Part shown: positions 21,001 to 27,000 of the stretch, one piece after another | Layout of the letters: the number at the start of each line of letters is the position of its first letter | How positions within the stretch are numbered: position 1 is the first letter of the stretch | Source: a virus | Taxonomy: Duplodnaviria > Heunggongvirae > Uroviricota > Caudoviricetes | IMG/VR virus record: IMGVR_UViG_2703718843_000004 | Strand: one strand, 5' to 3' | Length of the DNA: 28,160 nt | Program-made: the position numbers

Positions 21001-24000
21001 AATGTCATTTATTAAAACTTTTTCCGGGAAGCATTTTTATTATGACAGGATAAATAAAGCCGACATCGTTATTAACGATATCGCGGTTTCCCTTTCAAAT
21101 ATCTGTCGCTTTGCAGGACATCTTTCACACTTCTACAGCGTCGCCCAACATGCGGTTCTTTGCAGCCAACTGGTACCGCAGGAATTTGCTTTTGAAGCGT
21201 TAATGCATGATGCAACAGAAGCGTATTGCCAGGACATCCCCGCTCCACTGAAACGCCTTCTTCCTGACTATAAACAGATGGAAGAAAAAATAGACGCCGT
21301 AATCCGTGAGAAATACGGGTTACCCCCAGTTATGAGTACGCCCGTGAAATATGCCGATCTCATCATGCTGGCAACCGAACGCCGCGATCTCGGGCTTGAT
21401 GATGGCTCTTTCTGGCCTGTACTGGAAGGCATCCCGGCAACAGAGATGTTCAACGTGATTCCACTGGCACCGGGCCACGCCTACGGGATGTTTATGGAAC
21501 GTTTTAACGAGTTATCGGAGTTACGCAAATGCGCATGAATGTTTTCGAAATGGAAGGGTTTCTTCGCGGGAAATGTGTACCGCGAGATCTGAAAGTGAAC
21601 GAAACAAATGCTGAGTACCTGGTACGTAAATTCGACGCGCTTGAAGCTAAATGTGCGGCACTGGAAAACAAAATAATACCAGTGTCAGCTGAACTGCCAC
21701 CAGCAAATGAAAGTGTTCTGTTATTTGATGCTAACGGAGAAGGCTGGCTGATTGGCTGGCGTTCTCTCTGGTACACCTGGGAACAAAAAGAAACCGGAGA
21801 ATGGCAGTGGACATTTCAGGTCGGGGACCTTGAAAACGTCAATATCACTCACTGGGCAGTAATGCCGAAAGCACCAGAGACTAAGAAATGAGCGTGATAA
21901 AAACTCATACAGGAATTGTTATCACCCGAGACGGTGAAAAGCGGATGAAATTACATTCCACTGAAACGTCCTGGGTTGCCGGACGTTGTGAATCCTACGA
22001 CAAAAAGACTGGTTACCGTTGGGGTGCACCAAACATGCGTCGCCGTCTGCTACTGGACAGCATCAGGCCAATAAAACAGGTAGCAACCAGGGAACAAAAT
22101 TAATTATCAGGACTGGAATTTGATATTACTGCCCGTGTGCAGCGGGCTAAGTGGAGAAACATATGCTGAACCTCGATTGCGTTCCAATCTCAACTTATTG
22201 CAAAGAAACAGGCGAAACTCCTGAAGCAATAAACAAACGTGTACAGCGCGGTGTTTGGCGTGAAGGTGTTCAGGTTTTAAAGGTTGAAGGCGTTAAGGAG
22301 AGGTGGATTGATCTTAGTGAGGTTGCAAAATGGGCCAGACAAAACTGCTCAAACTACCGCGCGGCGTAACAATCAGGAAACACCGCCAGGGCGAAACGAT
22401 CAATATAACTTTCACCTACAAAGGAGTTAAATGTCGTGAGCCTCTTTCCAATCTGGAAGTAACACCAAAGAACATTAAATACGCCGAGCGCACACTCGGC
22501 GAAATTCATAATAAGATCGAAAGGGGAACATTTATTTATGCGGAATATTTTCCCCGTTCTGCTCGTTTGAAAATTTTTGGTAATGCTGCTGCAGGCAAAA
22601 CGGTAAAAATGTACCTGGACGAATACCTTGAAATCTGCGAAACGAGAAAACTTTCACCCTCTACGATTGGTGGTTATAAAAAATGCCGTAGTGCGTTAGC
22701 CTCACTCCACATTTGCCCTGCAAGTGAATTAACACCAGCAATCCTGAAAGCGTGGATTCAAAGCCAGAAAACGACCTTAAAAACAATTCGCAACCAGTTA
22801 TCTTTCCTGCGGTCAGCACTTGATGAAGCCGTAACCGATGGGGTACTTCAAATTAACCCCGTATCGTTGGTAACTGCTTCGCGCTACCAAAGTGATAAGT
22901 CAGAAGCAGAAAGCAGCTACGTGGTTGATCCGCTATCACCAGCAGAAGTTGATGCATTACTAACAGCAGCCGGAAACAAACAATGGGAGAATCTGTTCCG
23001 GTTCGCTATACATACAGGCCTGCGTAGTTCTGAATTATGTGCCCTTCGATGGCGTGATATCGACTTTGTTGGAAAAACTGCCCATGTCCAGAGCGCAAGT
23101 GTTGTCGGTGTTATCAAAGGAACAAAGACAAAAGCCGGTACTCGTAAAGTTGAACTGACAGAAGATGCAATGTTGGCGCTGATAAATCAGAAGCCATTTA
23201 CATTCATGAAGGATGCTACTGTCTTTGAAGATCCAAAGACCAATAAGCCCTGGGCAAGTGCTGATGCAATCAGGAAAAAAGCATGGGTGCCAACATTGCG
23301 AAAAGCAGGTATTCGTTACAGAAATCCATATCAAACCAGGCATACATTCGCCACCCGCCATATCAGCCGGGGAGCAAACCTGTTTTGGCTTGCAGCTCAA
23401 ATGGGGCATAAAGGGCCGGAGATGCTTTTCAGGCACTATGGCTCATATCTGAAGGAATATGATGGACAAACAAGCTTGAAGAAGATAACAATATAATCCA
23501 AGCATGAAACTATTGGCCACAATTTGTGGCCATTTTACGGAGCAAGATAGAAACATGGCAAATCAAATTACCAAACTAAAAAATATAAATGTTGTGAAGT
23601 TTCGCGGACTGAAAAATATAAACATCGAGTTTGGTTCTCGCCTAACTGTTATTTGTGGTAAAAATGGCACATCTAAATCCACAATTCTTGGCATTATCGC
23701 CCAAATATTTAGCTTTACAAAGGACTTTACCAAAAACCCTGAGACTGATTTAACACAATATAAAACATTAACAAATGGCAGCTTCAAGTCAGCTTTCAGC
23801 GAACATTTTAGGCTTTCAGAACAATTTGATGTTCCTGGTTCAATGGACGTCAAAATTAGTGTCTATGATGGTGCATCGAACAAACATCTTGAAAAACTAA
23901 CATTAGGTTTATACAGCTACAGTGACAGAGATAAATCTAGGCCTGTAGTCAGGGGAAATGATTCAATACCGGAAAAAAACCAAAGTAGAAACGTTACTCA

Positions 24001-27000
24001 TCCTGTTATTTTTTTAAGCTTAGCACGACTTCTTCCTATTACATTAAGGACTGATTACTCAACACGGGATGTTCAGTACATCAATGAAAATTCTGATGAA
24101 ATCAGAATGATGAGTAACCAACTCTTACTAAAAAACAATGGAAGCTCAGTAACAGCAACAAAAGGTACTATCGATTCAATGGTTGTCCATGGTGACAATT
24201 ATGATCACCAATCAGTATCTGTTGGTGAAGATAATGTTGGACAATTAATCCAGGCAATTTTTTCATTTAAAAGACTGAAGGAAACTTATTCTGATTATCA
24301 TGGCGGAATATTGTTAATTGATGAAGCCGATGCAGGTCTTTTCCCTGCGGCACAGTTAGAGCTAATTAATATTCTAACTAAAGCAGCAAAACAATACGAT
24401 CTGCAAATAATCATGACCTCGCACTCTCCATTAATAATAGAGGATATCTATAATCGTTCAAAACAAGATAGTGATAGCTTTAAAACAATATATCTTACAG
24501 ACACATATGGAGATATTAAAACAAAGAATAATCTTTCATGGACAGATATCCACGCTGATTTACATGTTGAAACTGTAAAAATTAATGATGACATTTGTCT
24601 TCCAAAGGCAAATGTATATTTTGAAGACAAAGAAGGTTTCGACTTTTTCAAACAATTGATAACAGATCGAAAAATAAATAAAATATTAAATCCATTAGGG
24701 AATATAAATATTAGCTGCTCTGCCATGCTTGACTTAATGGCAAGAAAAATACCAGAATTTACAGCTAAAAGCTTGATCGTCTTAGACGGTGATGTTGTTC
24801 ACGACAACAGTGCTAATGCAAAAAAAGCCAAAAAAGAAAAAAACTTATGTTTGCTTCCAAGCACCTTACCTCCAGACCAAATGATTTTTGAGTTTTTATA
24901 TAATTTACCACCTGATGATGCATATTGGGAAAATAAAAATAAATTTACAAAAGCTGTTTTTATGAAAACAGCTAAAGACATAATTGCAACGCTAAAGATT
25001 GGTAACGCTCCGATTGATTTAAAAATCCTTATAGATAATTATAAAAAAGTTAACAAAAACCATGGAGGGAGAGTTAGAAAACTGTTTAAAGATTTTGCAC
25101 ATACGACTCAATTTCAGGCCCAAGTCAAAGGAAGAGTTAAAGATAACCCATATCGATATTGGGTCGAGAAAAATCCTGTTCAATCGGATAGCTTCAAGAA
25201 TGAACTAATAAAGAGTCTTAAAGTTATTATGATAAGTGGACATGGTGTCGATTCTGCTACCATCTCATCATATCTGTCAGATAACTAATTGATTAAAAAG
25301 GGTTTTATGTGATGGCCATAAAGCCCTTTTTTTGATATACTTTAGATCTGACATTTAGAGGTATCATATGCGTTTTAACACCCCACTTCGCTATCCTGGC
25401 GGTAAAGGCAAGCTTGCAAATTTCATGCTTCGGATTATTGAAGAAAATAATCTTTCGCCTATACATTATGCCGAACCATATGCTGGGGGTGCTGGTTTAG
25501 CATTGAAACTGTTACATCTAAATGCAGCTGAAAAAATCATCCTTAATGATATTAATATTTCTGTTTATGCTTTTTGGCACAGTGTATTAAATCATGCAGA
25601 TCAATTATGTTCTTTAATTGAAAGAACAGAAGTTACAATGGATGAATGGTTTAGGCAGAAAGATATAATTAATAATCCTAAAGACCATGATCTTTTAACA
25701 ATTGGTTTCTCAACCTTTTTTCTCAATAGAACAAATCGTTCTGGAATATTAAAAGGTGGAGTAATTGGCGGTAAAAATCAAGAAGGGAAATGGAAGCTTG
25801 ACGCTCGCTATAATAAGAGTGATTTGATTTCTCGAATCCATAAAATATCAGAAAATCGTCACAGAATAGATTTATATAACATGGATGCAATTGATTTCAT
25901 TAAAAAAATAGTTATTCAATTGCCACAAAACTCATTAACATATTTGGATCCACCTTATTACATAAAAGGTAAAGGTTTATATATCAACCATTATGATCAT
26001 GATGATCATGTTAGGGTTGCAAAAGTCGTACAGAATAATATTAAAACACCTTGGATTGTTTCTTACGATAACACTCCTGAGATCCAAGCTATGTATAAGA
26101 CATCATCATTAGTATATGGAATAAACTACAGTGCTCAAGATCGGTACAAAGGATCTGAGGTAATGTTCTTCAGTGAACGATTGAAAATCTTTAAAACAGA
26201 TGATCCAACTAAGGTAAAAGCGCCTGTATTTAAAAGAGGATGTGTTGACGACCACATCCAGACATAAAAGGAGCCGCAAAAGATCCGCAGAATAAAATGG
26301 TTAGTATTAATCGTTTTATTTCAGCTAATTATAAAAATACGGACTCGGGTTCAACTCCCGCCAGCTCCACCAATTTTTGATATATTGAAGTTCAGTGAAG
26401 TCTATCAAGCCCGCATGGAACCAGCCTTGCGGGCTTTTTTACGTCTATAGTAGTCTACCGAGAATTGCTAGAATCTACTCGTTATGGCACCCTTTTTGGG
26501 ACCCAACACAAAGGGTCCAAAACATGAGGGTCCCAAACATGGCAAAAATCGCTAAGAAGCTCACTGACACTGAAATCAAAAGCACCAAACCTGCCGAGAA
26601 AGAGGTTAACCTTTTTGACGGCGATGGTTTGCTCCTGCGAATCGCCCCCTTAGCGAAGGGAGGAAAGAAAAATTGGTATTTCAGATATGCAGTGCCTGTG
26701 ACCAAAAAGCGAACTAAGGTGAGCTTAGGAACCTATCCTCACCTTACACTTGCGAAGGCACGAGCTTTACGTGATGAGTACTTGTCGTTGCTTGCAAATG
26801 GTATAGACCCACAAGTTCATAACACCCACAAAGCCAATGCCCTTAAGGATGCAACGGAACATACATTTCAAGCAGTAGCCAAGAAGTGGCTTGATGAGAA
26901 AGTCAAAACGTCAGGCATCTCCCAGGATCATGCTAACGACATCTGGCGAAGCCTAGAGAGAAATATCTTTCCAACGTTGGGTGATACCCCCATTAAGGAG

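Follow-up and report, generated by a model that had tools for sequence, protein, structure and literature searches.

A prophage-borne cassette pairing an OLD-like ATPase-nuclease candidate with a PD-Lambda-5_B-type adenine methylase as a candidate restriction-like defence system

Introduction

OLD-type nucleases are so far known as abortive-infection or stand-alone effectors. The PD-lambda-5 system was found by functional selection in ECOR7, where it lies in a P2-like prophage, and was described as 'ParB/HEPN, methyltransferase' (Vassallo 2022, Nat Microbiol, PMC9519451). Protection extended to nearly all of the tested phages, and the cloning of the system needed an mrr-deleted host (PMC9519451), which implies active genome methylation; its authors termed it a compacted prophage 'RM+Abi' system (PMC9519451). 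HEC-04 is a validated single-gene ABC ATPase-TOPRIM defence found in Hma systems, and it is inactivated by the triple mutation of E319/D375/D377 (Payne et al. 2024 preprint, 10.1101/2024.01.29.577857). An association of OLD-ABC/TOPRIM with modification systems has already been noted for BREX (PMC12839542). Here, we report on a stretch of 28,160 nucleotides (nt) from a virus of the class Caudoviricetes (IMG/VR record IMGVR_UViG_2703718843_000004), the whole of which is called the window below. The window is a lambdoid Escherichia coli prophage at ssrA and carries a conserved mobile two-gene cassette, in which an OLD-like ATPase-nuclease candidate (gene 1) is paired with an intact methylase (gene 2) and which is kin to two validated defence systems, PD-lambda-5 and HEC-04. 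This cassette is most likely an undescribed restriction-like anti-phage system.

The cassette and its products

The tyrosine integrase gene (int) at the int-proximal end of the prophage (22330-23496, + strand; Arm-DNA-bind_2 5e-23, Phage_integrase 3e-16; RefSeq 'site-specific integrase') stops at 23496, and the attachment (att) copy that marks the prophage boundary is the 3' end of ssrA, the transfer-messenger RNA (tmRNA) gene, at 26341-26372 (+ strand; sequence ..GGTTCAACTCCCGCCAGCTCCACCA ending at 26372). The two-gene cassette therefore lies between int and att. A preliminary description of this DNA had placed two AT-rich genes in that interval, and the guanine-plus-cytosine (GC) content bears this out, being 0.29-0.36 over 23501-26000 versus about 0.43-0.57 in the remaining prophage.

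Gene 1 (23555-25288, + strand; 577 amino acids (aa), WP_001596855.1, RefSeq 'AAA family ATPase') is an ABC-ATPase/Toprim-like, that is, OLD-like, nuclease candidate. Its open reading frame (ORF) has alternative starts at 23504 and 23555, the latter of which is backed by RefSeq and by the alignment of homologues. The length of about 577 aa and all of the motifs quoted previously were recovered, namely GKNGTSKST at residue 35, ILLIDEADAGL at 252, TSHSP at 288, FEDKEG at 356, and LIVLDGD at 407, with the last two spaced as had been described. Residues 1-339 form the ABC ATPase head, with Walker A (G35-S42, including K41), the signature (S220-E225), Walker B (L253-E257), and H290; residues 340-472 are assigned to a Toprim-like core with E357, D358, D411, D413, and D441; and residues 473-577 make up a helical C-terminal extension. 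The ABC motifs (Walker A K41, signature, Walker B/D-loop, and H290) and the acidic residues E357/D358, D411xD413, and D441 are all at least 97% conserved in 77 homologues.

The C-terminal domain (residues 340-577; 24572-25285, + strand) is predicted to consist of a four-stranded alpha/beta Toprim-like core and a helical bundle. The AlphaFold model of the gene 1 product had a mean predicted local distance difference test score (pLDDT) of 88.5, and the C-terminal domain modelled alone, from an alignment of the window's domain with full-length database proteins, reached a pLDDT of 95.1 and a predicted template modelling score (pTM) of 0.90. In the latter model, E357/D358 stand after strand one, D411xD413 after strand three, and D441 after strand four, and this modelled placement of acidic residues is the Toprim pattern. 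A Foldseek search with the full-length model returned the OLD protein of Thermus scotoductus (Ts OLD, 6P74) first (E 6e-12, 634 columns) and GajA next, and AriB and OLD were among the top matches of the C-terminal domain alone, where they had the longest alignments. The predicted structure resembles OLD, GajA, and AriB. Motifs, model, and Foldseek matches thus agree with the OLD-like ABC-ATPase and Toprim-like architecture that had been proposed earlier; for the C-terminal domain taken alone, the Toprim-like alpha/beta core was predicted, but its similarity to OLD and AriB is modest, and we regard the Toprim evidence as moderate.

Among the profiles that the preliminary description had named for the two genes, AAA_15 (3e-15) and AAA_21 matched gene 1, as did AAA_23 and SMC_N, and MethyltransfD12 matched gene 2, but Toprim_OLD and DUF4435 did not match: with permissive thresholds, no Pfam match to Toprim, Toprim_OLD, or DUF4435 was obtained in gene 1 or in 41 family members. 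A profile of the C-terminal domain gave only chance-level matches against all PDB sequences, and hhalign aligned the gene 1 family profile with P2 Old over the Walker B/H-loop region alone, with a probability of 38%. In PADLOC, 27 isolated C-terminal domains had weak matches only, to HEC-04 in five (best 9e-4) and to the retron ATPase-Toprim_I-B in one. The complete gene 1 product matched 123 PADLOC families, the 25 best listed being all of ATPase type (PtuA, AriA, and GajA best); PADLOC 2.0 holds no full-length model for it, no restriction endonuclease (REase) model was among its top matches, and its fold lies outside the classical REase folds. In a library of 1.84 billion representatives, 191 relatives of the C-terminal domain were found, always at the C-terminus of proteins of 500-640 aa, and the shorter of these (about 500-545 aa) have only the Toprim core in common with it.

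To judge from its motifs, gene 2 (25368-26267, + strand; 299 aa, WP_023363292.1, RefSeq 'DNA adenine methylase') encodes an intact D12-class N6-methyladenine (m6A) DNA methyltransferase, and it belongs to the PD-Lambda-5_B family. Both catalytic motifs, the S-adenosylmethionine (SAM)-binding motif I (EPxAGGxG, E36-G43) and DPPY (D194-Y197), are at least 97% conserved in the 77 homologues, and the Pfam match to MethyltransfD12 has an E-value of 1.8e-19. PADLOC matched residues 1-282 of 299 to positions 1-283 of 291 of PD-Lambda-5_B (PDLC04018; E 5.8e-124) and, over the full length, MTase_II (Type II methylase; 3.4e-107). The enzyme had previously been called Dam-class; its membership of the D12 m6A class stands, but it is not an orthologue of Dam because it scored 55.1 bits against NCBIfam TIGR00571 (Dam), whose cut-off is 114.85. 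We rejected an identification of gene 2 with M.EcoMIV of the methylome study of sequence type 131 (ST131), since M.EcoMIV lies in prophage Phi2, a different locus. By its locus-tag position, gene 2 more likely corresponds to 'M.Eco1886ORF14565P', which stands without a reported motif.

Linkage, co-divergence, and distribution of the pair

A genome scan for gene 1 relatives, using one genome per species, yielded 80 loci with 42-88% identity, spanning Gamma- and Betaproteobacteria, Bacteroidota, Mycobacteria, Listeria, Geobacter, and Acidobacteria. A methylase homologue was present in 78 of the 78 testable loci, the contig ending at the gene 1 stop in the other two. The methylase mostly lies directly downstream of gene 1, most commonly after a 2 nt gap or with an overlap of 4-14 nt. 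The pairwise identities of one protein correlate with those of the other (r = 0.78), a value reached by none of 999 Mantel permutations. Among viral contigs of IMG/VR, leaving out six that were cut at a contig end, a methylase accompanies the gene 1 homologue in 65 of 74 (61 adjacent and 4 nearby) and nine have none. Additionally, gene 1 and the methylase are frameshifted together in two decaying loci (L008 and L086). The two genes are one unit, in near-obligate linkage across phyla. The preliminary description had put forward a cognate, methylation-linked defence pair whose homologues should be found together; they were, in genomes and viral contigs alike, and at the level of sequence this linkage argues for that idea.

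Of 5426 complete E. coli genomes, 85 contain the cargo region at 99.8-100% identity, among them those of enteroaggregative E. coli (EAEC) 042 and the ST131 strain JJ1886, and the first 23.4 kb of the window are 99.7% identical to strain ETEC4088. In JJ1886 and ETEC4088, a P4-type island that follows the att copy in the window is absent, and the cassette is still joined to the prophage, with chromosomal genes directly after it; the cassette is therefore cargo of the prophage. Diverged copies of the pair were found in an integrative and conjugative element (ICE; Ec1119), in the icd-intE interval of an e14-like prophage, and in Citrobacter phage phiNP, and a related form, consisting of an ABC-ATPase protein and the same methylase family, stands beside the integrases of Streptococcus phage Javan645 and Vibrio phage ValB1MD-2. 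Five cassettes on contigs assigned to Comamonadaceae, Cupriavidus, Nitrosomonas, Methylobacillus, and Melaminivora (L055-L058 and L075) appear nearly identical to one another; four of them have identical percent identities to the two genes of the window, and in the tree the methylases of all five group together, which suggests that a single element has spread horizontally very recently.

In about 24 loci, mostly of Betaproteobacteria and Bacteroidota, the cassette sits between a DrmD-like SNF2 helicase gene and a Type III-like N6_N4 methylase gene (e.g., L042 1977-9288, L048 2092-9306, and about 22 further loci). The flanking genes of these DISARM/Hma-like operons matched PADLOC DrmD at 6.6e-202 and a Type III-like methylase at 2.5e-228. 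Such an 'embedded' position has been used for predicting new defence systems (Payne et al., 10.1101/2024.01.29.577857). In L042, a Fic/SoFic-like gene lies upstream of the embedded cassette.

Partners of the methylase family

Gene 2 is as good a match to PD-Lambda-5_B as the genuine copy, given that it scored 5.8e-124 versus 1.4e-121 for the B gene of a genuine PD-lambda-5 system (P2 hotspot, strain 3359), whose A gene scored 5e-168. Genuine PD-Lambda-5_A partners score 5e-168 to 4e-74; this model was not among the 25 best PADLOC matches listed for gene 1, and no ParB/HEPN ORF was found between int and att. Members of the methylase family are paired with PD-Lambda-5_A, with ABC-ATPase proteins, or with an unassigned 459-aa protein, and the PD-Lambda-5_A pairings were found in the P2 hotspot, an O121 prophage, and Paracoccus and Pseudomonas phages. 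In a neighbour-joining tree, methylases from the different pairings interleave. Four loci from unrelated genera (L009, L016, L039, and L084; Edaphovirga, Kushneria, Mycolicibacter, and Sterolibacterium) carry an ATPase-Toprim gene, PD-Lambda-5_A, and a single PD-Lambda-5_B methylase side by side. The 459-aa protein is encoded in Vibrio phage 10N.286.54.E5_PE002 (L090 4366-5745), convergently with a PD-Lambda-5_B-type methylase; it had no PADLOC or Pfam match and may be a third effector type for the family.

Proposed mechanism and alternative explanations

We favour a restriction-modification (R-M) logic, in which the methylase marks self DNA and an ATP-gated Toprim nuclease attacks unmarked DNA, and give it a probability of roughly 55%. 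The D12 m6A methylase would mark host and prophage DNA, and the ABC ATPase head of gene 1 would gate a C-terminal metal-dependent nuclease of Toprim type; unmarked incoming DNA would then be attacked in an ATP-dependent manner and methylated self DNA would be spared. Site recognition would be supplied by the methylase rather than by the nuclease, as by Mod in Type III systems, because unrelated NTPase-nuclease effectors share a methylase family that is conserved over its whole length and gene 1 has no domain recognisable for this task. On this reading, the pair should combine nuclease activity, sensitivity to methylation, physical coupling between the two proteins, and a defence phenotype, all of which we infer.

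A broader version of this logic, which we consider less likely than not, makes the PD-Lambda-5_B-type methylase a hub that would mark self DNA, read the site, and recruit or license interchangeable NTP-switch nucleases, as an unrecognised class of R-M systems. Its partners would be the ABC-ATPase/Toprim proteins, the ParB-CTPase-like/HEPN proteins of PD-lambda-5, and others, which would make gene 1 the first restriction subunit that is based on Toprim and gated by an ABC ATPase.

Several observations weigh against an R-M logic for the cassette. No sequence-reading domain is recognisable in gene 1, and the methylase is conserved over its whole length, whereas the recognition domains of R-M systems are typically diversified. 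The known relatives from OLD, PARIS, and Gabija work by abortive infection and not by restriction. In the complete genome of Diaphorobacter aerolatus (L065), the nuclease gene is intact and the methylase gene is frameshifted at a G-run at about 6795-6805, a break that could stem from a sequencing error or from phase variation, or could mean that the nuclease naturally occurs without the methylase here. Furthermore, the nine IMG/VR contigs without a D12 methylase form one clade about 40% identical to gene 1 (L164-L173, e.g., L167 3158-5659), in which the gene lies 4 nt downstream of a gene for a CI-like repressor (HTH_3 and Peptidase_S24) and is apparently part of a lysogeny operon. Because of this clade, we consider that the nuclease type can work without this methylase.

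The same clade, with its function in a lysogeny-repressor operon without a methylase, would suit a guard or abortive-infection system, the chief alternative to the R-M logic, which we judge rather unlikely for the cassette. Here, the ATPase-Toprim protein would be a latent suicide effector (PrrC-, PARIS-, or Gabija-like) that is restrained by, or monitors, the methylase or its methylation; infection would release it, e.g., by way of an anti-restriction protein or by depleting nucleotides, and host DNA or tRNA would be cut with no discrimination of unmethylated DNA. Its closest relatives in structure and sequence (PtuA, AriA/AriB, GajA, retron OLD effectors, and HEC-04) come from such systems, and the three-gene loci would fit a primary effector with a backup, a role in which OLD-ABC/TOPRIM modules have been described beside BREX (PMC12839542). 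The 'RM+Abi' label given by the authors of PD-lambda-5 (PMC9519451) is in line with this as well. However, the ATPase-Toprim protein is the sole partner of the methylase in 74 of the 78 genome loci, which leaves no second effector for which it could be the backup. A strict coupling in operons and a co-divergence with an apparently catalytically intact methylase are rather what protective modification would predict, and no trigger is identifiable from the sequence.

Improbable, in our view, is a selfish addiction module that would stabilise the prophage, ICE, or island by post-segregational killing, with defence as a side effect at most. Classical R-M pairs act as addiction modules, and the cassette is always located on mobile elements, by integrases or within the transfer regions of ICEs. 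Nevertheless, its embedding in DISARM/Hma-like operons and its kinship to the validated PD-lambda-5 and HEC-04 point to defence, and the roles of addiction and defence are not mutually exclusive.

A chance neighbourhood of independent cargo, namely a stand-alone OLD-like abortive-infection nuclease and an orphan anti-restriction phage methylase, is highly improbable and is rejected because of the co-occurrence data (78/78 genome loci and 65/74 viral contigs, with tight spacing or overlap and correlated divergence), since the methylase family also had a large effector partner in every context examined, even though a terminator-like hairpin, limited to close relatives, and a promoter-like site separate the genes in the lineage of the window, the prophage already has an unpaired N6_N4_Mtase (8989-10041), and the other prophage methylases of ST131, M.EcoMIV and M.EcoMV, were treated as silent orphans in the ST131 methylome study.

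Intergenic and upstream elements

A hairpin with a U-tract, resembling a terminator or an attenuator, lies between the two genes (25295-25333, + strand). Its folding energy is -17 kcal/mol (z -3.9), none of 200 shuffled sequences folded as well, and it is absent from the list of a simple terminator scan. The strong intergenic hairpin of the preliminary description is thus real, but the inclination towards two independent genes that had been drawn from it does not hold: the hairpin is conserved in the closest relative (L003) only, other lineages having a different intergenic sequence or none, and most taxa have the two genes overlapping or separated by 2 nt. A consensus scan gave a sigma-70-like promoter candidate for the methylase (TGGCCA-17-TATACT with an extended -10 TG; 25313-25341, + strand; 9/12 matches), which overlaps the 3' arm of the hairpin; such sites are not in excess in the region, and it is a candidate only. 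Because this promoter-like site overlaps the hairpin, the latter may tune the ratio of nuclease to methylase.

Upstream of gene 1, a perfect 9+1+9 palindrome, TGGCCACAA-T-TTGTGGCCA, followed by TTTT, was found at 23514-23532, 18 nt past the stop codon of the integrase gene and 23 nt ahead of the gene 1 start. It could be the terminator of int or an operator for the cassette. In a motif search, it was nearly intact only in the closest relative, the 88%-identical L003, and decayed in L008. TGGCCA, which is part of this palindrome and of the promoter-like -35 of gene 2, occurs upstream of gene 1 in only 3 of 83 loci and as a paired palindrome in only one of them (L003), and it is not enriched in the window (5 observed versus 6 expected). 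As a conserved regulatory or methylation motif of the family, TGGCCA was therefore rejected.

Flanking features of the prophage

Beyond the att copy, a second integrase gene, of P4 type (Arm-DNA-bind_3, Phage_int_M; 26539-27768), starts a separate island, which is a tandem insertion at the same ssrA att as the prophage. In strain 042 (L001 9140-13987), the P4-type integrase gene is followed by genes for a serine recombinase and two ParB-family proteins. A partial Rfam tmRNA match covers 26270-26372 (E 3e-8), and the window contains no intact tRNA or tmRNA gene. Just past the att copy, a sub-threshold match to the small RNA IsrM (26363-26440; 42 bits, E 1.6e-10, far under the gathering score) overlaps a terminator-like hairpin at 26423-26435.

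The second methylase of the prophage, the unpaired N6_N4_Mtase (PF01555, 2e-42; 8989-10041, - strand), sits between the Q antiterminator region and the lysis genes. Beside it lies an AT-rich segment (10501-11500, GC 0.39), whose small ORFs had no Pfam match.

Significance

The preliminary description knew of no system that pairs an OLD-like nuclease with a cognate adenine methylase. For the pairing itself this stands: we found no description of an OLD-like ATPase-Toprim protein with a D12 methylase in the searchable literature, with the ABC ATPase classification of Krishnan et al. 2020 as a possible exception. It does not stand for the methylase half, which belongs to the known PD-lambda-5, and the novelty is for this reason one of effector and not of principle; the methylase half (PD-lambda-5) and the effector type (OLD and HEC-04) are already known.

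Should the proposed mechanism hold, methylation-based discrimination of self and non-self would be a task for which OLD-type ABC-ATPase/Toprim nucleases can be used, and unrelated effectors would have a shared platform in one methylase family. The cassette is also widespread, occurring in several bacterial phyla, in many prophages and ICEs, and in the above-mentioned 85 complete E. coli genomes, with that of the pandemic ST131 strain JJ1886 among them. System-level callers would probably miss it, because PD-lambda-5 calls are expected to need both components and gene 1 has no full-length model; therefore, censuses of defence systems may undercount the cassette. Additionally, it may explain an m6A methylase that is unassigned in the methylomes of clinical E. 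coli, and it offers a compact two-gene model for the control of OLD-like nucleases.

Comparison with known systems

A parallel with PA1939 and PA2735, an OLD nuclease and a methylase of Pseudomonas aeruginosa, was rejected, as the two are unlinked and were shown to be independent (PMC6945700). Gabija requires the helicase GajB and has no methylase; no helicase gene was found in 22330-27768, and the GajA models match only the ATPase motifs of gene 1. In PARIS, the ATPase and Toprim are split over two proteins, Ocr is the trigger, and there is no methylase. The AriA models match only the ATPase motifs of gene 1, the AriAB model covers only residues 7-68, and DUF4435 had no match. No GajB-like or AriB-like gene is present at the cassette locus.

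With classical R-M systems, the cassette has different parts in common. As in Type II systems, gene 2 appears to be a methyltransferase with SAM-binding and catalytic motifs. Type III systems offer a functional analogy only, in that a methylase and a large NTPase-nuclease subunit are encoded together, usually in an operon, and the methylase is plausible as the site reader. Whereas Type III systems combine an SF2 helicase that carries a PD-(D/E)xK nuclease (Res) with a beta-class methylase whose recognition domain is internal (Mod), the cassette has an ABC ATPase with a Toprim-like domain and a D12-class methylase, and its gene order is effector followed by methylase.

Gene 1 has the N-terminal ABC ATPase with Walker A, signature, Walker B, and H-loop that characterises the OLD family. 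As in Class 1 OLD proteins (P2 Old and Thermus scotoductus OLD, 6P74), a single polypeptide combines this ATPase with a C-terminal domain, predicted in gene 1 to be Toprim-like, that bears E...DxD acidic residues, and both are lysogenic-conversion cargo of temperate phages. HEC-04 has an ABC ATPase fused to TOPRIM, the architecture predicted for gene 1, and is embedded, like the cassette, in helicase-methylase operons; the spacing of its E319/D375/D377 is similar to that of E357/D411/D413 in gene 1, and it is the only PADLOC model that matched the isolated C-terminal domain in several members (the five of 27 reported above). It differs in that it has about 494 aa and acts alone, whereas members of the gene 1 family, at about 570 aa, are linked to a D12 methylase in nearly all cases. 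The kinship is weak and only partial, as the whole-protein match of gene 1 to HEC-04 (E 3.7e-16) is driven by the ATPase motifs, with its best stretch covering residues 8-53 only.

PD-lambda-5 shares with the cassette the methylase family, the form of a two-gene, prophage-borne, AT-rich cargo, and a partner of NTPase-plus-nuclease type. The difference is in the partner, which is the ParB/HEPN protein PD-Lambda-5_A in PD-lambda-5 and an ABC-ATPase/Toprim protein here. We therefore read the cassette as an effector variant of PD-lambda-5, in which gene 1 replaces the ParB/HEPN partner.

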